A stretch of DNA of 32,000 nt, from positions 90,001 to 122,000 of the forward strand of contig NZ_JHUX01000004.1 in assembly GCF_000619845.1 (NCBI RefSeq), in the 5' to 3' direction. Positions 15,871-31,987 of the stretch are shown one piece after another. Position numbers and translations under genes: made by a program. Position 1 is the stretch's first letter, and each line of letters begins with the position of its first letter. The notes below the pieces were generated by a model. It did not search any database, was not told the DNA's origin, and saw nothing but the letters and a program-made list of their open reading frames with translations. This DNA is from Alkanindiges illinoisensis DSM 15370 (GTDB lineage Bacteria > Pseudomonadota > Gammaproteobacteria > Pseudomonadales > Moraxellaceae).

Positions 15871-16053
15871 TTATGCAGCATCCGCTCTATGGTTTTTCAA
15901 GAACCAGTACCAATAGGCGCGCTCTTGCTTGGGCAAGCGTTGTACCTGTTTGGGGTTCTGCGCATAAAATGTTTTGGTTCTATCACAAATGACTGAAATG
16001 TTAAGTCCGGTTTCGGATTCAGCCGATTTGATCGTTTGAGAGAGTGCTTCCAT
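15871..16053 (-). CDS. Small conserved protein of unknown function (60 aa), 'RLPK..RAYWYWFLK' family, paralogue 2
   Basis: See 11217-11417. I re-set the start to the ATG at 16053 (MEALSQTIK...). The track's 52-aa N-terminal extension has no counterpart in the paralogue. Confidence 0.6.
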   Translation of the reverse strand: MEALSQTIKSAESETGLNISVICDRTKTFYAQNPKQVQRLPKQERAYWYWFLKNHRADAA

Positions 16054-20041: not shown

Positions 20042-20980
20042 ATGGAAATAGGTATTGTTGTTTATCCTGCTGCACACCTGCCCTCGGTATGGGGACTGAC
20101 TGACCTGCTAAAATATGCCAGTAACTTTGTGGTGGCGCGACAGTTCCCGGATTTAAGAATTAGTCACTGGAAAGAACAGGATGGCCAGATCATCAAAATC
20201 TTTGACACCCATCCTGATGCTGACAATACAGTGAATCTGGTGGTGATCCCGCCCAGTTTTGAGCCTCCTATTTCCAAGCAGGACGCCCAGGCTTATTCAG
20301 CATGGCTTAACCGGCTTTATGACAATGGTGCCATTCTGTGTGCCATTTGTTCAGGCATTTTTACCCTGTTGGAAACCGGGCTTCTGGACGGTCGGACCGT
20401 GACTGCGCACTGGATGCACAGTGAAGCTATTCAGCAAAACTATCCTACCGTGACGCTGGATAACAGAAAGCTGATTGTGGATGACAATGAAATCATCACC
20501 CTGGCAGGGCTTTTATCATGGATGGATCTGGGGCTAAAGATTGTTGAAAAAGCCTACGATGGCGCAACCATGCGCGAATTTGCAAAATACCTGCTGGTTG
20601 ACCCGCCGTCACGTGAGCAATCCTACTATCATGCATTTTCACCAAAATTTGATCATGGCGATGTGACCATTGTTAAAGTCCAGCACTGGTTGCAGGGCAA
20701 TTATCAAAAGAAAATTACGCTTGAAGTGCTGGCCCAGCATATTGCGCTGGAAAAAAGAACCCTGTTACGGCGCTTTAAAAAAGCCACCGGCATGACCGTA
20801 ATTGAATATTGCCAGAACCTGCGAATTCAAAAGGCACAAGAGTTGCTGGAAACCACCAGTTTGAGTTTTGAAGCCATTTCCTGGCAGGTGGGCTATCAGG
20901 ACAGCTCATCGTTTAACAAGATTTTTACCAAAGTCATTGGGCTTACCTCAAAAGAGTACCGCAAGCGCTTTAAAAGTTAA
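20042..20980 (+). CDS. GlxA-type regulator: DJ-1/PfpI (GATase1-like) domain fused to an AraC-family HTH
   Basis: The N-terminal domain has the nucleophile-elbow-like motif AICSGIFTLLETGLLDGRTVTAHW. The C-terminal AraC double HTH reads LEVLAQHIALEKRTLLRRFKKATGMTVIEYCQNLRIQKAQELL...GYQDSSSFNKIFTKVIGLTSKEYRKRF. Confidence 0.8.
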   Translation: MEIGIVVYPAAHLPSVWGLTDLLKYASNFVVARQFPDLRISHWKEQDGQIIKIFDTHPDADNTVNLVVIPPSFEPPISKQDAQAYSAWLNRLYDNGAILCAICSGIFTLLETGLLDGRTVTAHWMHSEAIQQNYPTVTLDNRKLIVDDNEIITLAGLLSWMDLGLKIVEKAYDGATMREFAKYLLVDPPSREQSYYHAFSPKFDHGDVTIVKVQHWLQGNYQKKITLEVLAQHIALEKRTLLRRFKKATGMTVIEYCQNLRIQKAQELLETTSLSFEAISWQVGYQDSSSFNKIFTKVIGLTSKEYRKRFKS

Positions 20981-21213
20981 TCTGCTGTGATTAGCCAGAC
21001 CCTGATTGACCTTAATAGCCGCTAGCCTAACCCATTATGGCTTGACTCGGCGTGAATCGTGGATTAGATATAATCAAGGCCAACCCCTACCGCATGGCTG
21101 TTATGATGGCTGTTGCGGGTGCACACTCCATAAACGATGCAATACGATTTTGTGGTTTAGGTCAGAAGTAAAAAAATTCTGCTGATTGCTTCAATATCCC
21201 CAAATTTTATTCA

Positions 21214-22935
21214 ATGAATACAAGAAAGGACTCTATCGTGACCTCAATGACCCCCCAGGTACATTTTGCCACTGAACCCGAACTGGATCAGGCTATTTTG
21301 GAACTGAAATCCGGTGCAGCCAAATGGGCAAGCCTTGATCTTCAGCAGCGGATTGAGCTGCTTAAAGCCACCCATGCCAGTATTGCAACGGTGGATGAAG
21401 CATGGGCACTTGCTGCCATTGCTGCCAAGGGAACGCCCGCAGGCCCGCTTGAAGGTGAAGAGTGGATGTCTGGCCCCTATGCCACGCTGGCGGGTTTTGC
21501 AGCCACAATTGAAAGTCTGGAAAAAATGGCTCACGGCCAGTCATCCCTAAACGGCATTAAGGCAGGAAGCGCGCCGGGCAACCGGGTAAAATTCCAGATG
21601 CTGCCAAGCAACCTGTATGAATACAACCTGTTTCATGGCTTCCGTGCCGAGTTATGGATGGAACCGGGCATTTCCGAAGCCGAAGCACGGGCCAGTGCCG
21701 GACTGGGGGCAAAGCGGCCGGGTGAAAATGGTGGAGTTGGACTGGTGCTTGGTGCAGGCAATATCAGTGCGATTGCCCCGCTGGATGCCCTGTATGAGCT
21801 GGTTGCCTATAACCGCGTAAGTATCATCAAGCTCAATCCCACGTTTGGTACGCTCATCACTATTTATCAACAGGCATTTGCGCCATTGATTGAGGCTGGG
21901 TTACTCAGGCTGGTTAATGGTGGAGCCGAAGTAGGCACTTATTTAACCAGTCACCCAGATATTGCGCATGTGCATATTACCGGAAGTGGTGTTACCCATG
22001 ACATGATTGTCTGGGGGTCTACCTACGATAAAACCGGTACGCCAAAGCTGACCAAGCCAATTACCAGTGAACTGGGCGGGGTTTCCCCAATTATTGTCAT
22101 TCCCGGCAACTGGTCGAAGGAAGACCTAAGATTTCAGGCCGAACACGTTGCAACCCAGCGCCTGCATAACGGTGGGCATAACTGCATTGCTGGCCAGGCT
22201 CTGATTTTAAGTCAGGACTGGCCACAGCGCGCTGAATTTCTGGCAGAGCTGCGTGCGGTGCTGCGTGAAGTTCCTGCCAGAACCGCATGGTATCCGGGTT
22301 CAGACAAAAAAATTAGCCTTGCTACTGCAACTTACCCGCAAGCCGAAACCATCAATGGCAGAATACTGATTGAGGTGAATCAACATACGGCGCAGGATTT
22401 ATTCAATACCGAGTATTTTGCCCCAGTACTCGGCCACACCAGCCTGCCCGGCACAGGCCTTAGCTTTTTCCGTGCGGCCATTGAGTTTGCCAATACGCAG
22501 CTTGATGGTAGCTTGGGAGCCAGCATTATTGTTGCACCCGCTGACCATAAAAGTATGGGCAAAGCGTTTGATGAAGCCTTGGTTGAACTGCGTTATGGCA
22601 CCATTGGCGTTAATGTCTGGAGTGCCATTGGCTTTCTGTTGCCTACGCTGGCCTGGGGGGCGTTTAAAGGCAATAGCCTTGACCGTGTGGGTAGTGGCAT
22701 TGGCGTGGTGCATAATTCTCATCTGGTGGAACGCCCCGAGCGCAATGTCATCTGGGGGCCATTTAGACCGTTTCCCCGCTCGGTTTTTCATGGTGAATTT
22801 GCACTTTCCCCCAAACCGGCCTGGTTTATTACCGCGCGTTCTGCCGCCTCTACTGCCAAAAAACTGACCGCATTTACCGCCAAACCCAGCTGGCTTAAAA
22901 TGCCTGCAATCTTTCTGGCTGCCTTTCGCGCCTGA
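21214..22935 (+). CDS. Aldehyde dehydrogenase superfamily protein, unusually long (C-terminal ~70-aa extension)
   Basis: The catalytic Glu is in ELGGVSP and the catalytic Cys is in NGGHNCIAGQ. The start is ambiguous: the ATG at 21214, or the GTG at 21238, which has AAAGGA 7 nt upstream. Confidence 0.75.
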   Translation: MNTRKDSIVTSMTPQVHFATEPELDQAILELKSGAAKWASLDLQQRIELLKATHASIATVDEAWALAAIAAKGTPAGPLEGEEWMSGPYATLAGFAATIESLEKMAHGQSSLNGIKAGSAPGNRVKFQMLPSNLYEYNLFHGFRAELWMEPGISEAEARASAGLGAKRPGENGGVGLVLGAGNISAIAPLDALYELVAYNRVSIIKLNPTFGTLITIYQQAFAPLIEAGLLRLVNGGAEVGTYLTSHPDIAHVHITGSGVTHDMIVWGSTYDKTGTPKLTKPITSELGGVSPIIVIPGNWSKEDLRFQAEHVATQRLHNGGHNCIAGQALILSQDWPQRAEFLAELRAVLREVPARTAWYPGSDKKISLATATYPQAETINGRILIEVNQHTAQDLFNTEYFAPVLGHTSLPGTGLSFFRAAIEFANTQLDGSLGASIIVAPADHKSMGKAFDEALVELRYGTIGVNVWSAIGFLLPTLAWGAFKGNSLDRVGSGIGVVHNSHLVERPERNVIWGPFRPFPRSVFHGEFALSPKPAWFITARSAASTAKKLTAFTAKPSWLKMPAIFLAAFRA

Positions 22936-22997: not shown

Positions 22998-23168
22998 TAA
23001 ATTTCCTGCCATAATTTTTAATCTCATATTTATTTGTTTTTAATAATTTTTTACCAAAATTAAATCTTTGTAATTCGTTTACAAAAAATAGCTATCCCAA
23101 AAAATCACTATCAATATCCAAAATAAATATTTCTCATTATTTTTAAAAAAAAGCACTATCTGGCCAAG

Positions 23169-23180
23169 TTGTTATAACAA
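23169..23180. promoter_or_regulatory. Perfect 12-bp palindrome TTGTTATAACAA; candidate GntR/HutC operator
   Basis: The palindrome lies 25 bp upstream of the GntR-family gene's ATG. Its core GTTATAAC fits the GT-n-TA-n-AC type of palindrome generally reported for HutC-subfamily operators. Confidence 0.45.
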
Positions 23181-23204
23181 GTTACTGCTTGCCAGGAAGC
23201 ATGT

Positions 23205-23960
23205 ATGAACCAGCCGATTGCCCGTAGCGCCAGCAAACCCCTGTACAACCAGATTCGTGATGAATTGCTGCAAAAAATCACCAATGGCACTTATCCGGCC
23301 AACAGCCAGATTCCTTCCGAAAATGAACTGGGCGAACTGTTTCAGGTAAGCCGCATTACGGTACGCCAGGCACTAACCCAGCTCCAGCAGGAAGGGTTTA
23401 TTTTCAAGGTGCATGGCAAGGGATCTTTTGTGAGCAAGCCCAAGGCTTTCCAGAATGTGACCCATTTGCAAGGCTTTGCTGAGGCCCTGAGCACGCTTGG
23501 TCATGAAGTTATTAACGATGTCCGGCAGTTTGAATTTGTGACTGCGCCTATTCATGTGGCAGCAAAACTGCAATTGCCTGTAGGTAGTACGGTTACCGTG
23601 ATCAAGCGGATACGCCGGGTTAACCAGCAGCCGGTTTCCTTTGAAATCACTTATTTGCCGGAAAGTCTGGGACGTGAACTGCAACAGGTGAATCTGGTCA
23701 CCACCGATATTTTTCTGGCGCTGGAAGACGTATGCCAAATCTCACTGGGCCATGCCGATTTGACGATTGATGCCGTGCTGGCCGATGCGGAATTGGGTGA
23801 CCTGTTACAGGTTGACAGCCATGCGCCCATATTACGGGTTGAGCGCCTGACCCATAACTCGGCGGGTCAGCCCATTGATTTTGAATACCTGTATTTCTCG
23901 GGTGATGCCTTCCAGTACCGCTTACGGATTGATCGGCAAGCGCCCGGCAGCACACACTAA
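23205..23960 (+). CDS. GntR-family transcriptional regulator, HutC subfamily (winged HTH plus UTRA effector domain)
   Basis: N-terminal motif: LYNQIRDELLQKITNGTYPANSQIPSENELGELFQVSRITVRQALTQLQQEGFIFKVHGKGSFV. The ~170-aa C-terminal domain has the length and pattern of a UTRA domain. Confidence 0.85.
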   Translation: MNQPIARSASKPLYNQIRDELLQKITNGTYPANSQIPSENELGELFQVSRITVRQALTQLQQEGFIFKVHGKGSFVSKPKAFQNVTHLQGFAEALSTLGHEVINDVRQFEFVTAPIHVAAKLQLPVGSTVTVIKRIRRVNQQPVSFEITYLPESLGRELQQVNLVTTDIFLALEDVCQISLGHADLTIDAVLADAELGDLLQVDSHAPILRVERLTHNSAGQPIDFEYLYFSGDAFQYRLRIDRQAPGSTH

Positions 23961-24019
23961 TTTGTTGATTACTGTTTTCTCGATATTTGTTTTCTTGTTT
24001 TACGGTTAGGGGTAACACC

Positions 24020-25798
24020 ATGCAAACACAGTTACTGGAATATGATCTGGTGGTTATTGGCGGTGGTACAGCCGGGCCGATGGCTGCCATCAAGGCCAAA
24101 GCGGCCAATCCTGCCTTGCGCGTGCTGCTGATTGATAAAGCCAACGTCAAGCGTAGTGGCGCCATTTCCATGGGCATGGATGGCTTGAATAATGCCATTA
24201 TTCCGGGGCATGCCACGCCGGAGCAATACACCAAGGAAATTACCATTGCCAATGATGGCATTGTCAATCAGGCCACCGTGTATGCCTATGCCAAGCACAG
24301 TTTTGAAACCATTCAACAACTGGACAAGTGGGGCGTCAAGTTTGAAAAGGACGAAACCGGTGATTATGCAGTCAAAAAAGTGCATCACATGGGCGCCTAT
24401 GTGCTGCCTATGCCTGAAGGCCATGACATCAAAAAAGTGCTGTACCGCCAGCTTAAACGCGCACAGGTCAAGATCAGCAACCGGATTATCACCACGCGCC
24501 TACTGACAGATGTTGATGGTGCCATTAATGGCGTGATGGGTTTTGACTGCCGCTCCGGTGATTTTTATGTGATCAAGACCAAAGCAGCTATTTTGTGTTG
24601 CGGCGCTGCTGGACGGCTGGGTTTACCCTCATCCGGCTACCTGATGGGCACCTATGAAAACCCCACCAATGCCGGCGATGGTTATGCCATGGCTTATCAC
24701 GCGGGTGCTGAACTTTCCAACCTTGAATGCTTCCAGATTAACCCACTGATTAAGGACTATAACGGCCCGGCCTGTGCTTATGTGACTGGGCCGCTGGGTG
24801 GTTTTACTGCCAACAGCAAAGGCGAACGCTTTATTGAGTGCGACTACTGGAGCGGGCAAATGATGTGGGAGTTTTATCAGGAACTGCAAAGTGGCAATGG
24901 CCCGGTGTTCCTGAAACTGGATCATCTGGCTGAAGAAACCATTCAAACCATTGAAGAAATCCTGCATACCAACGAACGTCCCAGCCGTGGCCGTTTCCAT
25001 GAAGGCCGCAACATCGATTACCGTGAAGACATGGTGGAAATGCACATTTCCGAAATTGGTTTTTGCAGCGGCCATAGTGCCTCTGGCGTCTGGGTCAATG
25101 AAAAAGCTGAAACCACGGTGAAGGGTTTATATAGCGCTGGTGACATGGCTGCCGTACCGCACAACTATATGCTGGGTGCATTTACTTATGGCTGGTTTGC
25201 CGGGGTGAATGCTGCTGAATATATCGCCAGCCGCGATGCAAATGGCCAGTTTGGCGAGCTGGATCAGGCCCAGATTGAGGCTGAGCAACAGCGGGTGTTT
25301 GCGCCGCTTGTGCGTAGCCAGCAGGGTGAACCAGGACTGGCGCCTGAACAGGTGGAATACAAGCTGCGCCGCATGGTAAATGACTACCTGCAACCACCCA
25401 AAACCCGCCAGAAAATGGAAATTGGTCTGCGTCGTTTTGAAGAAATCAAGGCCGATATTGCCCAGATCAAGGCCAATAATCCGCACGAACTCATGCGTGC
25501 TGCCGAAGTATCCGTAATTCGTGATTGTGCCGAAATGGCGGCGCGTGCCTCGCTGTTTCGTACCGAAAGCCGCTGGGGCTTGTATCACTATCGCGCTGAT
25601 TTTCCGCAAAAAAATGATCAGGACTGGTTTTGCCATGCCCATCTGAAAAAAGATGCCAGCGGCAATATGGTCAGCCTGAAAAAACCGGTTGAACCCTACC
25701 TGATTCCGATTGAGCAGGATGAAGCGCAATCCTACCAAAAACTGCGTATTCCGCAAGGCAACAAAGAACCGGGCAATAAGCAACTGGCTGAAATTTGA
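24020..25798 (+). CDS. AprA-like FAD flavoprotein (adenylylsulfate reductase alpha / fumarate reductase flavoprotein superfamily)
   Basis: YDLVVIGGGTAGPMAAIKA is followed by LIDKANVKRSGAISMGMDGLNNAI, which parallels the AprA pattern KAxVERSGAVAQGLSAIN. The late motif is GLYSAGDMA. I re-set the start to the ATG at 24020, which has AGGGG upstream. Confidence 0.7.
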   Translation: MQTQLLEYDLVVIGGGTAGPMAAIKAKAANPALRVLLIDKANVKRSGAISMGMDGLNNAIIPGHATPEQYTKEITIANDGIVNQATVYAYAKHSFETIQQLDKWGVKFEKDETGDYAVKKVHHMGAYVLPMPEGHDIKKVLYRQLKRAQVKISNRIITTRLLTDVDGAINGVMGFDCRSGDFYVIKTKAAILCCGAAGRLGLPSSGYLMGTYENPTNAGDGYAMAYHAGAELSNLECFQINPLIKDYNGPACAYVTGPLGGFTANSKGERFIECDYWSGQMMWEFYQELQSGNGPVFLKLDHLAEETIQTIEEILHTNERPSRGRFHEGRNIDYREDMVEMHISEIGFCSGHSASGVWVNEKAETTVKGLYSAGDMAAVPHNYMLGAFTYGWFAGVNAAEYIASRDANGQFGELDQAQIEAEQQRVFAPLVRSQQGEPGLAPEQVEYKLRRMVNDYLQPPKTRQKMEIGLRRFEEIKADIAQIKANNPHELMRAAEVSVIRDCAEMAARASLFRTESRWGLYHYRADFPQKNDQDWFCHAHLKKDASGNMVSLKKPVEPYLIPIEQDEAQSYQKLRIPQGNKEPGNKQLAEI

Positions 25799-25835
25799 AA
25801 CACTATTTTTTAAAAACAGTTTTCTGGAGAACATC

Positions 25836-26081
25836 ATGGCATTTATTGCACGTGAAACTGGACACCGTACCGCCGCTCCTGTGCTGGTGGATGAAGACAA
25901 ATGTATTGCCGACAAGGGCTGCACCGTGTGTGTGGATGTTTGCCCGCTGGACTTGCTGGCGATTGATCCAGTTAAGCAAAAAGCCTACATGCAGTTTGAT
26001 GAATGCTGGTACTGCATGCCGTGTGAGAAAGACTGCCCTACCGATGCCATTTATGTGGGCATTCCCTACTTATTGAAATAA
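25836..26081 (+). CDS. AprB-like 2x[4Fe-4S] ferredoxin (81 aa)
   Basis: The two cluster motifs are CIADKGCTVCVDVCP and CWYCMPCEKDCP. The intervening segment LDLLAIDPVKQKAYMQFDECWYC resembles the AprB pattern NDLM..D....KAYN.EPD.CWEC. I re-set the start to the ATG at 25836, which has GGAGA upstream. Confidence 0.7.
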   Translation: MAFIARETGHRTAAPVLVDEDKCIADKGCTVCVDVCPLDLLAIDPVKQKAYMQFDECWYCMPCEKDCPTDAIYVGIPYLLK

Positions 26082-26104
26082 TTACTTTTTATGAGAAATG
26101 CTCA

Positions 26105-27520
26105 ATGAAAATTTTACTTAAAACATTACCAGTCGTGTTGACGGCAACTACCTTACTTAGTACCCAGTCTGTACTGGCCGAAACCATCCGGGTGGCCATT
26201 GGTACACAGGACACCACCATCAATTGCGCTACCGGGGGCCTGCTGATTCGTGAATTGAATCTCCTGAATAAATACCTGCCCAAAGATGGCAAATATAAAG
26301 ATGTGAAATACGATATTGTCTGGAAAAACTTTACTTCCGGTGCCCCGCTCACCAGTGAAATGGTGGCGGGACGGCTGGATTTTGGGGCAATGGCCGATTT
26401 TCCCGGCGTCAATAATGGTGTGGCCTTTCAAAAAACAGGCAAGCAAAGTGTGTTTTTAAGCGTGCTGTCCGGCAGTACCACGGGAAGCGGCAATGGCATT
26501 GTCGTGCCGTTAAATTCTAAAGTGCAATCCATTCGTGACTTAAAAGGCAAAACCATTTCCGTGCCGTTTGCCTCAACCGCACATGGCTTGCTGCTACGCG
26601 CAGTGGCTGCACAAGGCTGGGACCCCAAGCGTGATGTCAAAATTATTGCACAGGCGCCTGAAGTGGCAGGCCCGGCGCTCAAGAGCAACAAGATTGATGC
26701 GCATGCCGACTTTGTGCCATTTGCCGAGCTGTTCCCGTACCGGGGTTTTGCTCGCAAGATTTATGATGGCTCACAGTCCAATGCACCGACGTTTCACGGT
26801 TCACTGGTGAGCCGCGAGTATGCGCAAAAATATCCGGAGATTGTTAATGCCTATCTGCGCGCGGCCATTGAAGCCAACCAGCTGATTGCCCGTGAACCGG
26901 AAAAATACAGCTTGCTGATTTCAAAGGTGACTGGCGTTGAACCTGAGGTGGTATATCTGTTCCACGGTCCACTGGGTCTGCAAACCCGCGACCTGACCTG
27001 GAAACCGGAATACCGCAAGGCCACCCAGACTGCTATTGACACGCTCAAGCTGCTTGGCCGCACTGATGTCAACCTGAACGTCAACCAGTTTATCTCTGAC
27101 AGCTATATCAAAAAAGCCTTTGCCAGCGCTGGCCTGAATTACGATGCCCAACTGAAAAACTACGGCAAACTGCTGCTGGTTGCCAATGATGCGCTAACTC
27201 ACCAGCCGATTAAAACCTTTGAACGGGTAACGCAGGTCTGGGTACGCGATGAAGCCAAAGTGCGCAGCTACCAGAATGCGGAAAATGCCTTTAAGGATTT
27301 AAAACGCCTGCATCAAGCCGGTAAAAATATCCGGGTGGTTTACATTCAGGATCGTAACAGTGGCATCAAGCTGCTGGCCAATCAGGCGTGGTTTGCCACT
27401 GATAAACAGGGCCAGATCAATGGTTTCCTCCTGCGTGGCAATGCCGATCAGTGGGCCAAAGCGCATGGTGGCAAGGTCTATGACTTCAACAATGCCCAGA
27501 AACTGGTGAAAGCAGGTTAA
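26105..27520 (+). CDS. Periplasmic substrate-binding protein, NitT/TauT (sulfonate/nitrate/taurine) type, with an extra ~120-aa C-terminal domain
   Basis: Signal peptide: MKILLKTLPVVLTATTLLSTQSVLA/ET. The SsuA/TauA-like core spans aa ~25-345. An additional domain spans aa ~350-471. The gene is adjacent to a cognate permease and ATPase. Confidence 0.7.
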   Translation: MKILLKTLPVVLTATTLLSTQSVLAETIRVAIGTQDTTINCATGGLLIRELNLLNKYLPKDGKYKDVKYDIVWKNFTSGAPLTSEMVAGRLDFGAMADFPGVNNGVAFQKTGKQSVFLSVLSGSTTGSGNGIVVPLNSKVQSIRDLKGKTISVPFASTAHGLLLRAVAAQGWDPKRDVKIIAQAPEVAGPALKSNKIDAHADFVPFAELFPYRGFARKIYDGSQSNAPTFHGSLVSREYAQKYPEIVNAYLRAAIEANQLIAREPEKYSLLISKVTGVEPEVVYLFHGPLGLQTRDLTWKPEYRKATQTAIDTLKLLGRTDVNLNVNQFISDSYIKKAFASAGLNYDAQLKNYGKLLLVANDALTHQPIKTFERVTQVWVRDEAKVRSYQNAENAFKDLKRLHQAGKNIRVVYIQDRNSGIKLLANQAWFATDKQGQINGFLLRGNADQWAKAHGGKVYDFNNAQKLVKAG

Positions 27521-27532
27521 GCCTGCGTTGAT

Positions 27533-27562
27533 GCTGGTACTGGCTAAAAGATCAGTACCAGC
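27533..27562 (+). other. Intercistronic perfect 10-bp stem-loop (GCTGGTACTG / CAGTACCAGC) between the binding-protein and permease genes
   Basis: Arms at 27533-27542 and 27553-27562 flank a 10-nt loop. No U-tract follows, so it is more likely an mRNA stability or decay-barrier element than a full terminator. Confidence 0.55.
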
Positions 27563-27577
27563 GTTAGGGAGCTAATC

Positions 27578-28432
27578 ATGAAAGTACTGACTCAATCTGC
27601 CGCGCTGGACCAACCGACTACCGCCAGCATTCCCTATCTGTCCATACAGCGGCTGGCTCAACTACGCCAAGTGGTAATGCGGGTACTGGCTGTGGCGGAC
27701 TGTGTGCTGCTGTGGCATGTGCTGGCACATTTCAAGCTGGATCTGGGCGTGGTGAGCTTTGTCAATGTGCCCACCCCTGTTGAGGTGCTACATGCCTTTG
27801 TCCAGTTTAGTCACTTGCCAGATGCGCTCAGTCACTTAAAGGCCAGCCTGTGGCGGGTACTGGCCGGTTTCCTGGCGGCTGCAATTGCTGGCATTGCTTT
27901 GGGCGTGCTGATTGGCCGCTCCAGACTGGCCTGCAACCTGCTCATGCCACCGCTTGAAGTGCTGCGTCCCATTCCTGCGGTGGCATGGATTCCACTGGCT
28001 GTGCTGATGTTTCCCTCGTCTGAAATTTCCATGATTTTTATTACCTTTCTGGGCGCGTTATTTCCCATTTTACTCAATACCATTCATGGCGTAGAAGACG
28101 TTGACCCACGCTTGATTGCCTCGGCAAAAAGTCTAGGAAGCAAGCGCTGGTCTATTTTTAGCGAAGTCGTGTTGCCTGCCGCCACGCCCAATATTGTGAC
28201 TGGGCTTGCCATTGGCATGGGCACCTGCTGGTTTTGTTTAATTAGCGCCGAAATGATTTCAGGCCAGTTGGGCATTGGTTATTTCACCTGGGAATCATTC
28301 ACCCTGCAAAACTATGCCGACATTGTGGTGGGGATGCTACTGATTGGCGCACTGGGTTTGCTCAGCAGCGCCCTGATTCGCTGGACTGGCAAACAACTCA
28401 CGCCGTGGTATCACACAGGACGCAAATCATGA
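27578..28432 (+). CDS. ABC transporter permease (SsuC/TauC-like)
   Basis: Six hydrophobic segments and the EAA-type loop ASAKSLGSKRWSIFSEVVLPAATPNIVTGL. Confidence 0.8.
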   Translation: MKVLTQSAALDQPTTASIPYLSIQRLAQLRQVVMRVLAVADCVLLWHVLAHFKLDLGVVSFVNVPTPVEVLHAFVQFSHLPDALSHLKASLWRVLAGFLAAAIAGIALGVLIGRSRLACNLLMPPLEVLRPIPAVAWIPLAVLMFPSSEISMIFITFLGALFPILLNTIHGVEDVDPRLIASAKSLGSKRWSIFSEVVLPAATPNIVTGLAIGMGTCWFCLISAEMISGQLGIGYFTWESFTLQNYADIVVGMLLIGALGLLSSALIRWTGKQLTPWYHTGRKS

Positions 28433-29277
28433 CACAGACCATTTCCAACAAGCAGGGCCATGTCAGCATTCAGCACTTAAACCTGCATCTGGGACAGGCT
28501 GACAAGCGTTTTGAAGCCCTGCATGATGTTTCCTTTGACATTCAGCCTGGTGAATTTGTCTGCCTGCTGGGGCCTTCCGGCTGTGGCAAATCCACCTTGC
28601 TGGGGGCGCTGGCCGGGCATTTGCCGTTTACGTCAGGTCAGTTGCTGCTGGATGGCCAACCCATTAAGGCACCCGATTCTGAACGCGGACTGGTGTTTCA
28701 GCATCACACCCTGTTTCCGTGGAAAAGCGTGCTGGACAATGTCAGCTTTGGCCTGAAAATGAAAGGCATTGGCAAGGCAGAACGCGAGAAACAGGCCCGT
28801 GAATTGTTGCATCTGGTCGGGCTATCCGGCTTTGAAAACCGCTATCCAGCCGAGCTGTCCGGTGGGATGCAACAGCGGGTTGAAATTGCCCGTGTGCTGA
28901 TTAACAAGCCCAAAGTGCTGCTGATGGACGAACCTTTTGGTGCGCTGGATGCCCAGACCCGCCTGATGATGCAGGAACTGCTGCTGGACATCTGGAATGA
29001 AATTCAAACCACGGTGCTGTTTATTACCCATGATATTGATGAAGCCTTATTTCTGGCTGACCGGGTACTGATTATGAGCCACCGCCCCGGCCAGATCATT
29101 GAAGAAATTCTGCTGACCTCAAAGCCTGATTTTACCCGCCCGCGCAGTACTGATCTGGTGACCTCACCTGAGTTTATGCAGCTGAAAAAACACTGCATCC
29201 AGACCCTGCGGCAACCACCTACGGCTGAGCTAAAACGGCTTAATCCACTGGGTATTCTGCCCAAAACCCCAGCCTGA
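28429..29277 (+). CDS. ABC transporter ATP-binding protein (SsuB/TauB-like)
   Basis: Walker A is GPSGCGKST, the signature motif is LSGGMQQR and Walker B is LLMDEPFGALD. The ATG at 28429 overlaps the permease stop codon (ATGA). Confidence 0.85.
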   Translation: MTQTISNKQGHVSIQHLNLHLGQADKRFEALHDVSFDIQPGEFVCLLGPSGCGKSTLLGALAGHLPFTSGQLLLDGQPIKAPDSERGLVFQHHTLFPWKSVLDNVSFGLKMKGIGKAEREKQARELLHLVGLSGFENRYPAELSGGMQQRVEIARVLINKPKVLLMDEPFGALDAQTRLMMQELLLDIWNEIQTTVLFITHDIDEALFLADRVLIMSHRPGQIIEEILLTSKPDFTRPRSTDLVTSPEFMQLKKHCIQTLRQPPTAELKRLNPLGILPKTPA

Positions 29278-29322
29278 TTTTAAAAATAAATCATATCCCG
29301 TTAAGACATAGGGTAAATCATT

Positions 29323-30327
29323 ATGACGCTCACCACCCAGACTTACTATCCGGATTTAAGCCCCGATTTGAGTATTGATGCGGAGTATTTAAGCCTTCAT
29401 CGCCGCTTGAATCAGGATGATGCCGCTGTTCGCCGCATTACCATTATGGATATTGCCGATGAGGAAAACAGTGAATTGCTACCGTGGCTACATTTTGCAG
29501 TCAAGCATGACCCTGCCCCTGAAGTAAGGCAGGAAGCTGCCACTCGGCTGGAAGGCTGGGAAGATCACGACACTATACATGCCTTAAGTATGGCGCTGCT
29601 GGATTCCAGTCTTTTGGTTAAACAGGCTGCTGCGCAAAGCCTGAGCGAAATCAAACAGGCAGAATCCATTGAACCGCTATTGCCCCTGCTGGCGCATGCA
29701 GACAGCTATGTGCGTGCTGCGGCCTTGCGGGCCATCCGTGAGTTACGTCCTGTGCAAGCCATTAATGCCATTGTGGCCAATATTCATCATGCCGATGTGC
29801 AGGTGCGCCGTGAAGCAGTCAGTACGCTGGGCTGGCTTAAACAGGCTTCAGCGCAATCCTTGCTGGCTGAACTGGCGATCAATGACACTGATGCCGAAGT
29901 ACGCCGTATTGCGACCGGGGCGCTTGGAATTAGTGAACAGACCACGCCTGCCATTGAACAGGCGCTGCTTAAAGCCCTAACCGATGAAATCTGGCAAATC
30001 CGGGTTGAAGCGGCCCTGACGCTGGGCAAGGTTAAGCCGCAGTCCGCCATTATTCCGTTAATTACAGCGCTTGCCGACTCCTATTGGCAGGTGCGTATTC
30101 CAGCCGCACGCAGTCTGGGCAAACTTAAAGCCACTCAGGCTTTAGAAGCGCTGGCCCTGCCCCTGCAACATGAGATTAGTAACCTGCGTAAGGAAGCCGC
30201 TCTGGCCCTGGGCGAAATTGGTGGCCACCGTGCCTTGCAACTTCTGCAACAGGCAGAAACAGACAGTGATCCCGAAGTGCGAAAGGCAGTACGCATTGCC
30301 ATCAATCAAATTGGTCAGGCGGATTGA
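29323..30327 (+). CDS. HEAT-repeat (PBS-lyase-type) protein, about 9-10 repeats
   Basis: A ~31-aa unit recurs with the D.xVRxxAAxALGxI pattern. Examples: DPAPEVRQEAATRLEG, DSYVRAAALRAIREL, DVQVRREAVSTLGWL, DAEVRRIATGALG, YWQVRIPAARSLGKL, DPEVRKAVRIAINQIG. Confidence 0.8.
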   Translation: MTLTTQTYYPDLSPDLSIDAEYLSLHRRLNQDDAAVRRITIMDIADEENSELLPWLHFAVKHDPAPEVRQEAATRLEGWEDHDTIHALSMALLDSSLLVKQAAAQSLSEIKQAESIEPLLPLLAHADSYVRAAALRAIRELRPVQAINAIVANIHHADVQVRREAVSTLGWLKQASAQSLLAELAINDTDAEVRRIATGALGISEQTTPAIEQALLKALTDEIWQIRVEAALTLGKVKPQSAIIPLITALADSYWQVRIPAARSLGKLKATQALEALALPLQHEISNLRKEAALALGEIGGHRALQLLQQAETDSDPEVRKAVRIAINQIGQAD

Positions 30328-30329
30328 AG

Positions 30330-30617
30330 ATGAAACCTGAGCACATCAAGGTCGATGTATCACAACAAATCCTGCACCTGTATTGGCCGGATAGCAAGGT
30401 GCAGGCATTAAGCCATCAGGTGTTGCGTGAGCAGTGTCCCTGTGGTTTTTGCCGGGCAAAACGCTTAAGACAGCAAGAGATTATTGCAGCACCAGATACT
30501 ACAATTACTGCCATGTTTGATCAGGGCTATGGGGCACAGATTTGTTTTAGTGATGGGCATGACAAGGGAATTTTTCCATGGACTTATTTATATGAAATCC
30601 AGCAAGCTGAGCTATAA
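30330..30617 (+). CDS. DUF971 family protein (gamma-butyrobetaine-hydroxylase N-terminal-like zinc domain)
   Basis: The pattern LREQCPCGFCR...GYGAQICFSDGHDKGIFPWTYLYEI matches the DUF971 consensus (LR..CpCa.C ... f.DGH.tGiy.w.yL). The start is the ATG at 30330, 2 nt after the HEAT stop codon; an overlapping TTG at 30324 is also possible. Confidence 0.7.
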   Translation: MKPEHIKVDVSQQILHLYWPDSKVQALSHQVLREQCPCGFCRAKRLRQQEIIAAPDTTITAMFDQGYGAQICFSDGHDKGIFPWTYLYEIQQAEL

Positions 30618-30968: not shown

Positions 30969-31505
30969 TTACTTTGGTGATCGTGTTGGAAGCTTACCAC
31001 CCTTCTTTATGGCTATATTGATAGCACTAGAAAGTTTAGCTACATGATCCAAACCAAAAAAAGCCGAATACTCTTTTAAAGGCGTGGTCATCTTTTCCCT
31101 CATCATTTCATGATTTTTTTTAAGCTCAGGATAATCATCATTTTCGTTAAAGGCATTAACCGCTATGTCATCGCCCACATACAAACGTCCACCATTAGAA
31201 AGACAATACTCAGTTAAATAATCAAGTAAATCATAAATAAATTTTCTTGGAACATTAGTTATATGAGAGAGCATATAAACATGAGAAATATGTAGAGAAG
31301 ATATTCCATTCTCAAGTTTGCTATATCCGGATTTTGATATACCACCCAATTGAAAACCCATGATTTCCTGACTTACATCTAACTCTGTCCTGAATAGATA
31401 TAAGATATAGCCAAATAAACTATCAACCGAACACCTAAAAGTCCTCTGCTGATCTTCTAATATTTTCATTGTTTCATCGAAAGAAAGATGATCACTATTT
31501 TTCAT
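30969..31505 (-). CDS. XRE/cI-like HTH protein with an uncharacterised C-terminal domain, in AT-rich (foreign-looking) DNA
   Basis: HTH: LFRTELDVSQEIMGFQLGGISKSGYSKLENGISSLHISHVYMLSHI. The codon usage is much more AT-rich than in the rest of the window. The gene is divergent from a small HTH gene. Confidence 0.6.
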   Translation of the reverse strand: MKNSDHLSFDETMKILEDQQRTFRCSVDSLFGYILYLFRTELDVSQEIMGFQLGGISKSGYSKLENGISSLHISHVYMLSHITNVPRKFIYDLLDYLTEYCLSNGGRLYVGDDIAVNAFNENDDYPELKKNHEMMREKMTTPLKEYSAFFGLDHVAKLSSAINIAIKKGGKLPTRSPK

Positions 31506-31738
31506 ACTAGCCTCCTTTATTTCGCTATTGTATCATAAAAAAAATAATAACCACCAATCCGTCACTTTTAATCATATAAATATTTAAAGTTTCCTAAAAG
31601 AGTCTATTCACTCATAAGAATTTATGTGTTATTTTGAGTCCGTGAAATTAAAAGCTATGAAAACCCCTACTGAACTAGCAGTGGCAATTCCATACGCAAA
31701 TGCTTTTCACGCGTTAATGATTATCAAGAGGAAAATAT

Positions 31739-31987
31739 ATGAATACTGAATTTTCACAACTTTCCCAAAAGTATCTGATTAGTCAGAAAGATTTGGCAAG
31801 AAAGCTTGGGATGAGCGTAGATGCCCTACGCAAGCTGCAAAAAATTGATCCTGTATTTGCCCAAGCTATGATTAAAATGGGTTCAACTCGACAAGCTGCT
31901 GTTTTTTACATAGTCGCTGAAATTTTAAAGTGGATTGAGTCAAAAAAAACTCAGAACGTGTTTAATCAAGCTATTGAATGCAAATGA
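31739..31987 (+). CDS. Small Cro/excisionase-like HTH protein (82 aa)
   Basis: ISQKDLARKLGMSVDALRKLQK is HTH-like. A good ribosome-binding site (AAGAGGAAAA) is present. The gene is divergent from the XRE-like gene across a 233-bp AT-rich region. A further ORF begins at 31984 (an ATGA overlap) and runs off the window. Confidence 0.55.
   Translation: MNTEFSQLSQKYLISQKDLARKLGMSVDALRKLQKIDPVFAQAMIKMGSTRQAAVFYIVAEILKWIESKKTQNVFNQAIECK

Follow-up and report, generated by a model that had tools for sequence, protein, structure and literature searches.

The window analysed here, a stretch of 32,000 nucleotides of Alkanindiges illinoisensis DSM 15370 (contig NZ_JHUX01000004.1, positions 90,001 to 122,000), carries a cluster of eight genes that we read as a sulfur-scavenging module, in which an imported compound of the type X-SO3- would be reductively cleaved to sulfite; we assign this reading a probability of roughly 45%. 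Judged by sequence, the cluster encodes a flavoprotein-ferredoxin enzyme of the AprAB type, i.e. related to adenosine 5'-phosphosulfate (APS) reductase, with a substrate site that appears re-tooled, set in the operon of a sulfonate-type importer of the ATP-binding cassette (ABC) class together with dedicated HEAT-repeat and DUF971 proteins. Most soil sulfur is held in sulfonates and sulfate esters. Anaerobes free the sulfur of sulfonates by glycyl-radical enzymes, and to our knowledge all characterised aerobic sulfonate-desulfurising routes use an oxygenase (SsuD, TauD, MsuD, and asf together with ssu). The features of the cluster are the following, all genes being open reading frames (ORFs) whose domains were assigned by Pfam and NCBIfam profiles (aa, amino acids).

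23167-23182, no strand: 16-bp palindromic candidate operator AGTTGTTATAACAAGT, read from the sequence, 23 nt upstream of the regulator start codon
23205-23960, plus strand: GntR/UTRA regulator of the HutC type, first gene of the unit (Pfam GntR 68 bits, UTRA 119 bits)
24020-25798, plus strand: flavin adenine dinucleotide (FAD) flavoprotein of 592 aa, NF006131/PRK08275, predicted catalytic subunit (NF006131 1122.6 bits; contains KANVKRSGAISMGMDGLNNAI)
25836-26081, plus strand: ferredoxin of 81 aa with eight Cys and two [4Fe-4S] motifs (contains QKAYMQFDECWYCMPCEKDCP)
26105-27520, plus strand: NMT1/SsuA-like periplasmic binding protein of 471 aa with a signal peptide (SsuA_fam 123.1 bits)
27578-28432, plus strand: ABC permease, NitT/TauT family (Pfam BPD_transp_1)
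28429-29277, plus strand: ABC ATPase, NitT/TauT family (Pfam ABC_tran)
29323-30327, plus strand: HEAT-repeat protein of 334 aa, PBS-lyase/alphaRep type (Pfam HEAT_2 187 bits)
30330 (or, from a TTG codon, 30324)-30617, plus strand: DUF971 protein with a GBBH-like N-terminal domain (Pfam PF06155 62.8 bits)

The first-pass annotation of the window had reported these eight genes, an AprA-like and an AprB-like peptide (KANVKRSGAISMGMDGLNNAI in the flavoprotein, QKAYMQFDECWYCMPCEKDCP in the ferredoxin) and two close junctions, and all of them were recovered from the sequence. The start codon of the ATPase gene overlaps the stop codon of the permease gene (ATGA, 28429-28432), and 2 nt (30328-30329) separate the HEAT stop codon from the DUF971 ATG. 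It had further remarked on the lack of sat, aprM and qmo; none of these is among the annotated ORFs of the window, and neither sat nor qmoABC nor aprM was found in the related loci. The flavoprotein is 100% identical to an Alkanindiges illinoisensis protein. Promoter and terminator scans of the window returned no more sites than shuffled sequence.

Co-conservation was counted over 82 loci, namely those of P. citronellolis, Cellvibrio and the 80 best genome matches, with a filter on the G+C content at third codon positions (GC3) applied to the clustering of ORFs in high-GC loci. The gene order GntR-flavoprotein-ferredoxin-binding protein-permease-ATPase-HEAT-DUF971 is the same in P. citronellolis, Cellvibrio and these 80 best matches, which are gamma- and betaproteobacterial and include Acinetobacter, Pseudomonas, Paraburkholderia, Burkholderia, Caballeronia, Cupriavidus, Ralstonia and others; the complete eight-gene cluster is present in A. 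baumannii. The ferredoxin gene was found at 81 of the loci, the regulator gene at 80, the HEAT gene at 75, the DUF971 gene at 69 and the three ABC genes at 65-67, and contig ends account for several of the missing genes. Moreover, a smaller core made up of flavoprotein, ferredoxin, HEAT protein and usually DUF971 protein occurs in Alphaproteobacteria, Acidithiobacillus, Cyanobacteria and Actinobacteria. On plasmids of Sinorhizobium, Bradyrhizobium and Methylobacterium it takes the form DUF971-flavoprotein-ferredoxin-HEAT, with a Crp/Fnr regulator and an ABC system that has a long binding protein, and the core is also carried on plasmid pTcM1 of A. caldus and on a plasmid of Nostoc. In Actinobacteria flavoprotein and HEAT protein are fused in one protein of ~900 aa, which corresponds to NCBIfam NF010374. 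The cluster is a real co-inherited operon, its co-conservation lying far beyond chance. The layout had been taken for a single unit in the first-pass annotation, and this view held when the co-conservation check was run, since the genes recur together in the 82 loci and both the eight-gene unit and the smaller core are co-conserved across several phyla.

The flavoprotein is a full-length member of NF006131 (PRK08275), with 1122.6 bits against a cutoff of 587 over profile positions 4-574 of 577, a family that carries the generic name 'fumarate reductase/succinate dehydrogenase flavoprotein subunit' and no assigned function. The aprA models fall far below their cutoffs (TIGR02061, 199.1 against 641.75 bits; NF005331, 296.3 against 557 bits), and the Sdh, Frd and NadB models score lower than the aprA models. 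Among solved structures the ranking runs from the alpha subunit of the reductase for 3'-phosphoadenosine 5'-phosphosulfate (PAPS) of M. thermolithotrophicus (MtPAPSR, 1e-65) over A. fulgidus AprA (1e-49) and D. gigas AprA to SdhA (7e-25), FrdA and NadB. The AlphaFold model of the flavoprotein, built on a shallow alignment of sequences at least 81% identical, reached a mean predicted local distance difference test (pLDDT) score of 42.6 and was unusable, so that no fold search was run with it. In a neighbour-joining tree with 100 bootstraps, in which the A. fulgidus sequence is partial and transcribed from PDB alignments, the window family groups with its relatives of 36-43% identity (bootstrap 85). 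The sister clade holds AprA, MtPAPSR, a cysC-linked protein of Ilyobacter and the representative P0151 (bootstrap 99), and the node that joins the two has a bootstrap of 99. P0151 falls under NF005331 and the window protein under NF006131, and the two families form separate clades. The AsfA clade (own bootstrap 99) is the next outgroup to this supergroup of AprA and the window family, and it groups there, away from SdhA, FrdA and NadB, with a bootstrap of 100. The phylogenetic placement suggested in the first-pass annotation therefore puts the flavoprotein beside the AprA/PAPS-reductase clade as its sister and inside no characterised clade, and the resemblance to AprA and AprB claimed there is confirmed by MtPAPSR and AprA being the best relatives of solved structure and by the alignment of the ferredoxin with AprB.

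Compared with the AprAB of A. fulgidus (1JNR/2FJA) and D. gigas (3GYX), the pair shares the build of a fumarate-reductase-superfamily FAD protein joined to a ferredoxin with two [4Fe-4S] clusters, the equivalents of Asn74, His398, Lys267 and His446, and the Cys motifs of the ferredoxin with a tryptophan beside cluster I, whereas the flavoprotein is 34% identical over the aligned columns, the ferredoxin is tail-less and sat, qmo and aprM are lacking. At the active centre of AprA, Asn74, Trp234, Arg265 and His398 are invariant, Tyr95, Val273, Gly274 and His446 contact the phosphate and ribose, and the adenine is clamped by Arg317 and Leu278 (Meyer and Kuever, PMC2211403). The alignment shows that the window family keeps the equivalents of Asn74, His398, Lys267 and His446, and that Arg265 is replaced by Leu, Trp234-Tyr235 by Tyr-Glu, Tyr95 by Glu, Val273-Gly274 by Ala-Cys and Leu278 by Thr; this comparison of contacts to adenosine monophosphate (AMP) covers the residues other than Arg317, which falls in an unaligned stretch. 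The replacements are constant from Alkanindiges to the actinobacterial fusion, while MtPAPSR, the Ilyobacter protein and P0151 retain Arg265 and the Trp-Tyr pair. As far as the alignment tells, the residues that touch the sulfo oxygens beside flavin N5 (Asn74 and His398) survive and the nucleotide pocket does not. Because Arg265, Trp234 and the tested AMP contacts are lost, the flavoprotein is predicted not to be an APS or PAPS reductase. The first-pass annotation had drawn on the chemistry of AprA, a flavin N5-sulfite adduct, to suggest an organosulfur substrate: the retained Asn74 and His398 speak for such chemistry and the lost Arg265 and Trp234 against it, and its retention with a different leaving group would be plausible.

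The view that the pair is nevertheless a genuine assimilatory AprAB-type APS or PAPS reductase, like the M. thermolithotrophicus enzyme, is nearly excluded. It could appeal to MtPAPSR (PDB 8A8O; PMC10322725), which is the best solved match over its full length (1e-65), has a short beta subunit as well and stands in an assimilatory setting, and to the AprAB-like pairs of anaerobes (Clostridia and others), which are tied to sulfate assimilation (PMC8477390; PMC10322725) and of which the Ilyobacter locus carries cysC and cysD. However, MtPAPSR and the AprAB-like clade keep Arg265 and the Trp-Tyr pair and adjoin sat, cysDN or cysC, whereas the window family has replaced these residues together with Tyr95, Val273-Gly274 and Leu278 and keeps company with an importer, HEAT and DUF971 genes. 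None of sat, cysC and cysDN was found in the cluster at any of ~95 loci, the aprA model scores lie far below the cutoffs and the window family forms a clade of its own. Residues, model scores, the place in the tree and the absence of partner genes thus all led us to reject the assignment as a true APS/PAPS reductase.

The small ferredoxin displays the Cys motifs CX5CX2CX3CP and CX2CX2CX3CP and aligns to residues 1-62 of D. gigas AprB and to A. fulgidus AprB, including the tryptophan of the CW(x)C motif, which in AprB lies between cluster I and the FAD and is thought to pass electrons to the latter. The stretch CWYC[ML]PC is present in 81 of 81 ferredoxin orthologues. The ferredoxin domain of AprB, with two [4Fe-4S] motifs and the tryptophan, is therefore there, whereas the C-terminal part is not: the protein counts 81 aa versus 150-166 in AprB and is without the ~70-90 residues that form the sheet domain and the tail clasping AprA, and the aprB model TIGR02060 scores 40.7 bits against a cutoff of 135.65. 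A gene for an FdxA-type 7Fe ferredoxin lies inside the cluster at six loci (Methylobacterium, Variovorax, A. caldus and three betaproteobacterial metagenome-assembled genomes, MAGs); at two of the six it is accompanied by a gene for an Fpr-type ferredoxin-NADP reductase and at four by one for a 1153-aa Pyr_redox_2 protein. Since such electron-input proteins sit in some of the clusters, we infer that the flavoprotein acts as a reductase, as assimilatory APS and PAPS reductases do. The 1153-aa protein follows the cluster in A. caldus (10574-14035 of its locus, L220) and in the three betaproteobacterial MAGs; the only domain recognised in it is Pyr_redox_2 (residues 372-576), and the greater part of the protein has no annotation. 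It is possibly an NAD(P)H-dependent enzyme dedicated to electron input.

The HEAT and DUF971 genes go together with the enzyme and not with the transporter, because the ~13 of 82 loci that are without ABC genes retain flavoprotein, ferredoxin and HEAT protein and mostly also the DUF971 protein. In the fusion model NF010374 it is the C-terminal half to which the HEAT protein matches. Given the fusion of flavoprotein and HEAT protein, the sulfur-poor composition of the latter (see below) and the missing AprB tail, it probably serves as a stoichiometric scaffold of the flavoprotein-ferredoxin complex. The DUF971 protein (PF06155, 62.8 bits against a cutoff of 22.8; PDB match 3luu) carries the motifs CPCGFC and DGHDKG, of which CxCxxC and DGHxxG are conserved in the orthologues, and a Cys3-His metal site is predicted. 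In Nostoc, a DUF59-Mrp/NBP35 gene sits in place of DUF971. Furthermore, DUF971 showed cofitness with Mrp, BolA and YggX in randomly barcoded transposon sequencing (RB-TnSeq), which pointed to Fe-S cluster maintenance (bioRxiv 10.1101/072470), and the DUF971 protein of the cluster probably services the Fe-S clusters of this oxygen-exposed enzyme.

The importer resembles the sulfonate systems SsuABC and TauABC. For the binding protein, the best PDB sequence matches are SsuA and TauA, and the models SsuA_fam (123.1 against 163.5 bits) and taurine-binding (74.7 against 304 bits) both stay below cutoff. The AlphaFold2 model (pLDDT 79) led Foldseek to rank TauA and SsuA first (E 5e-21 to 3e-19), the core reaching template modelling (TM) scores of 0.77-0.83, normalised to the target, at 22-24% identity, with fold matches that extend over roughly the initial 310-390 alignment columns of the model (471 residues) and that also include NrtA and CmpA. 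The protein is thus predicted to have the TauA/SsuA fold of type II periplasmic binding proteins. The permease finds its best NCBIfam matches in SaoP, NtrB, TauC and SsuC, all below cutoff, and the ATPase in the taurine ATPase model (264 bits against a cutoff of 357). The system shares with SsuABC/TauABC the core fold of the binding protein and these best matches (SaoP, TauC and SsuC for the permease, the taurine ATPase model for the ATPase); it differs in that its components remain below the equivalog cutoffs, the binding protein has an extra domain and the unit contains no SsuD or TauD oxygenase gene. The extra C-terminal domain, an alpha/beta domain of ~130 aa (window 27122-27517) missing from SsuA and TauA, is conserved in all orthologues of the binding protein (~460-490 aa in total). 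It shows a weak match to NosL (E 4e-4 and 21 bits, the cutoff being 24), and a homologue, P0488, has a precomputed NosL Pfam match.

Further indications of a sulfur context come from amino-acid composition and from neighbouring genes. Met and Cys together make up 0.64% of the binding protein and 0.60% of the HEAT protein in the window, and the orthologue medians are 0.91% and 0.62%, respectively, versus 2.99% for 603 flanking ORFs. A low Met/Cys content is a known signature of abundant sulfur-starvation proteins; the composition of the HEAT protein therefore suggests abundance. An operon for a family-2A encapsulin, a cysteine desulfurase, a rhodanese and a serine-acetyltransferase-like protein adjoins the cluster at 12 of the 82 loci, in five genera (Acinetobacter, Cellvibrio, Paraburkholderia, Pseudomonas and Cupriavidus). 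In Acinetobacter the encapsulin operon is induced ~10-fold by sulfur limitation (PMC10836720), and a functional link to the encapsulin sulfur store, e.g. in remobilising stored sulfur, is possible from this arrangement. Genes for TauD, a luciferase-like monooxygenase and NlpA/MetQ each lie near the cluster at 6-7 loci. A sulfatase gene adjoins the cluster in P. citronellolis; TauD, sulfonate ABC and sulfate ABC genes are nearby in Sinorhizobium; and in Nostoc the surroundings include a second gene for a sulfonate-binding protein, metX and an O-acetylhomoserine sulfhydrylase gene. Taken with the SsuA/TauA-like binding protein and the proteins poor in Met and Cys, these neighbours support, without proving it, the organosulfur role that the first-pass annotation had suggested. 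Upstream of the A. baumannii copy (L092, 564-5373) we observed genes for a sigma-54 Fis-type regulator, a hydrolase of the metallo-beta-lactamase (MBL) fold, a TIGR01244 phosphatase and a TSUP transporter, four genes that look like a FisR-controlled operon for sulfide/persulfide detoxification.

The same surroundings raise the alternative of a substrate that is either a sulfane carrier or an inorganic oxyanion of sulfur (such as thiosulfate, a polythionate or S-sulfocysteine), which a ferredoxin-dependent reductase would split to sulfite and sulfide or thiol, possibly with a link to the mobilisation of sulfur stored in the neighbouring encapsulin. We consider it unlikely. The encapsulin-cysteine desulfurase-rhodanese operon is consistent with such a role, its rhodanese being able to use thiosulfate (PMC10925157), but the adjacency is limited to 12 of the 82 loci. 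A thiolate would chemically be a good leaving group at the sulfo sulfur, and inorganic anions are carried as well by NitT/TauT binding proteins, of which NrtA and CmpA appear among the fold matches; the core of the binding protein is nevertheless closest to the organosulfonate binders TauA and SsuA. Moreover, a substrate-specific repressor of the HutC type is more typical of organic effectors.

Among known systems, the closest to the cluster by architecture appears to be asfRABC of P. putida S-313, which consists of the 'reductase' AsfA, the ferredoxin AsfB, the binding protein AsfC and the LysR regulator AsfR. It is required for arylsulfonate desulfonation (PMC4267179), and Rmet_4334/5 of C. 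metallidurans are annotated as AsfA/AsfB (PMC2864759). Both systems join a flavoprotein of the superfamily to a small ferredoxin with two clusters, a binding protein like SsuA and ABC genes of the NitT/TauT family, and the asf system is controlled by sulfur; they differ in the regulator, which is of the LysR type in asfRABC and of the GntR/HutC type in the window. We defined the AsfA clade by the published primers asfAF1all and AsfBtoA together with the AsfA/AsfB of strain CH34, the P. putida S-313 sequence itself not being included. A scan of metagenomes with the forward primer yielded 34 loci in which the reverse primer site follows 0.76-1.2 kb downstream, nearly always at 1.0-1.2 kb, and whose AsfA proteins are ~520-660 aa as called, most of them near 530. 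Against 18 AsfA proteins defined by the primers, the window flavoprotein shows 21-27% identity (of the 19 extracted, one gave no BLAST match), and it is no closer to them than to SdhA. The CH34 megaplasmid holds one asfAB pair with both primer sites at ~928 kb, and its flavoprotein is 23% identical to the window protein; the member of the window family in Variovorax paradoxus (71% identity) has neither primer site. Compared by eye, the primer-encoded motifs LSGMEF (AsfA) and CFMCE (AsfB) correspond to LSNLEC and CWYCM in the window. AsfA is without Asn74 and His398, and the asfAB loci often carry SsuA-like and ABC genes and never HEAT or DUF971 genes. A protein search for the source-given name 'AsfA' returned generic names only, from Paenibacillus relatives. 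Orthology to asfABC was rejected on the identity of 21-27%, the separate clade and the differing primer motifs, and the window cluster is best described, on sequence comparison, as a second system parallel to asfABC. The first-pass annotation could match the gene set to no known pathway; this stands insofar as the set is neither asfABC nor AprAB, and has to be amended insofar as asfRABC is an architectural analogue. Full-text literature searches found no publication on this flavoprotein family, and the actinobacterial sulfur-omics papers that were consulted do not mention it. At one asfAB locus (L108) two asfA-asfB pairs stand in tandem.

With asfRABC as a model, flavoprotein and ferredoxin could also be an electron-transfer pair only, which feeds a separate oxygenase such as SsuD that desulfonates the imported compound. 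This is the accepted reading of the parallel asf architecture (PMC4267179; PMC2864759), and genes for a luciferase-like monooxygenase or TauD do lie near some loci. We hold it to be improbable for the window, as an oxygenase gene is not among the genes conserved with the cluster, the flavoprotein and AsfA share 21-27% identity and fall into different clades, and the substrate-site residues Asn74, His398 and His446 of AprA, needless for a pure carrier, are kept. Furthermore, FdxA and ferredoxin-NADP reductase would feed into the pair, which would therefore be the end of the chain. The position of AsfA in the tree, despite its lost Asn74 and His398, raises the question whether the literature view of AsfA as a mere electron carrier is adequate.

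The regulator that heads the cluster meets the description as HutC-type given in the first-pass annotation, having an N-terminal GntR winged helix and a C-terminal UTRA domain, both above the Pfam cutoffs, which place it in the HutC subfamily; it reaches none of the NCBIfam equivalog cutoffs (those of HutC, PhnF and others). The perfect palindrome noted earlier in its promoter was located by sequence reading at 23169-23180; this TTGTTATAACAA is the core of the 16-bp AGTTGTTATAACAAGT, a pattern with one match in the window versus 0.02 expected from shuffles. In the upstream regions of 81 related loci and the window (n = 82), a site that matches the family consensus ACTTGTYATRACAAGT with at most two mismatches in the 12-mer core precedes the regulator gene in 73, at a distance of 8-107 nt, mostly 18-70 nt. 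The site has GT..AC half-sites, as in operators of the HutC subfamily. Since the palindrome is conserved upstream of the regulator gene and the genes for regulator and flavoprotein overlap in P. citronellolis, the operon is probably autoregulated and repressed at the predicted operator.

The mechanism that we propose would begin with the regulator leaving the operator once substrate or product is present. The ABC system would bring in an anion bearing -SO3-, such as an organosulfonate, a sulfate ester or a thiosulfonate. Electrons would pass from NAD(P)H over ferredoxin-NADP reductase and FdxA to the small ferredoxin with its two [4Fe-4S] clusters and on to the FAD, whose reduced N5 would attack the sulfur atom; the resulting N5-sulfite adduct would release XH and sulfite, the latter entering cysteine synthesis by way of sulfite reductase. 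The HEAT scaffold would keep the tail-less ferredoxin on the flavoprotein, and the DUF971 protein would supply or protect the Fe-S clusters. Taken further, flavoprotein, ferredoxin and HEAT protein would together represent a novel class of enzyme, namely a reductive desulfonase or desulfatase that is driven by ferredoxin, needs no oxygen and works through an N5-sulfite adduct, a proposal that we regard as tentative and rather doubtful.

Several points weigh against a sulfur-scavenging module of this kind. No earlier example of a flavin that drives the reductive cleavage of a C-S bond, or of the S-O bond of an ester, is known to us. Arg265 and Trp234, invariant in true APS reductases, are Leu and Tyr in the window family, and N5-sulfite chemistry may therefore not be retained. 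The flanking genes in the window itself are not sulfur genes, and an induction by sulfur limitation is a prediction from amino-acid composition and neighbouring genes. Import by this transporter is not obligatory, given the ~13 loci without ABC genes. Finally, the relatives of 36-43% identity stand beside TctABC, NhaC-type and YeiH-type transporters, with no evident sulfur context, so the wider clade may act on varied anions.

This last point, together with the non-sulfur flanks of the window, the place of the flavoprotein in the fumarate-reductase superfamily and the common use of HutC-type regulators in catabolic operons, could be read in favour of a unit with no role in sulfur supply at all, i.e. 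a reductase or dehydrogenase that would serve the catabolism or detoxification of an imported organic acid and attack a C-C or C-N bond, as do other members of the superfamily. We judge this very unlikely: the catalytic Arg of fumarate reductases, which corresponds to AprA Arg265, is Leu here, conservation in the cluster extends to no other catabolic enzyme, the sulfur depletion of the binding and HEAT proteins holds across their orthologues, neighbouring genes for sulfur scavenging are seen repeatedly, in several phyla, and the binding protein has the predicted TauA/SsuA fold. As to the relatives themselves, a small ferredoxin or Fe-S partner is always adjacent, and their neighbours comprise TctCBA, NhaC-type or YeiH-type transporters, an aldehyde:ferredoxin oxidoreductase and a GltD-like protein. 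They appear to make up a wider, uncharacterised group of enzymes for imported anions that are built of flavoprotein and ferredoxin.

Directly upstream of the cluster (20042-22935), the window encodes an AraC/FtrA-like regulator (DJ-1/PfpI and HTH_18 domains) followed by an unusual 573-aa protein of the aldehyde-dehydrogenase family, of which ~140 residues match the Aldedh profile. Both were considered as members of the unit and rejected, as they are not conserved with the cluster over the 82 loci. Farther upstream, two genes for BLUF blue-light sensors lie within 6 kb on the minus strand (9109-9747 and 14802-15392), and between them are a class A beta-lactamase gene (9816-10895) and an efflux pair of HlyD and major facilitator superfamily (MFS) type (11612-14555). 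The window further holds genes for a tyrosinase-domain protein (663-2228), a flavin amine oxidase (2350-4026), a 1146-aa STAND-type AAA_16/TPR regulator (4047-7487, minus strand) and a protein like the ETX/MTX2 pore-forming toxins (7890-8891). The G+C content falls to 33-36% at 1-1000, 15001-16000 and 31001-32000, compared with ~50% in the cluster. The right-hand low-G+C stretch contains two small HTH_3 genes, at 30969-31505 (minus strand) and 31739-31987 (plus strand), and may be a boundary of horizontally acquired DNA.

The cluster is found in at least four phyla, including thousands of sequenced isolates of the A. baumannii group, Burkholderia, Pseudomonas, rhizobia and cyanobacteria. AprAB-like paralogues of anaerobes are already known; they lie in a different clade, which keeps the catalytic residues. 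[quoted passage not shown] Should the complex indeed represent such a novel class, an oxygenase-free organosulfur route would be open to aerobic soil, plant-associated and clinical bacteria (among them A. baumannii, Burkholderia and Pseudomonas), and this route would have a scaffold (HEAT) and an Fe-S service factor (DUF971 or Mrp) of its own. The whole supergroup of AprA, the window family and AsfA would then, by extension, be enzymes of sulfo groups, and AsfA itself might be a catalyst.

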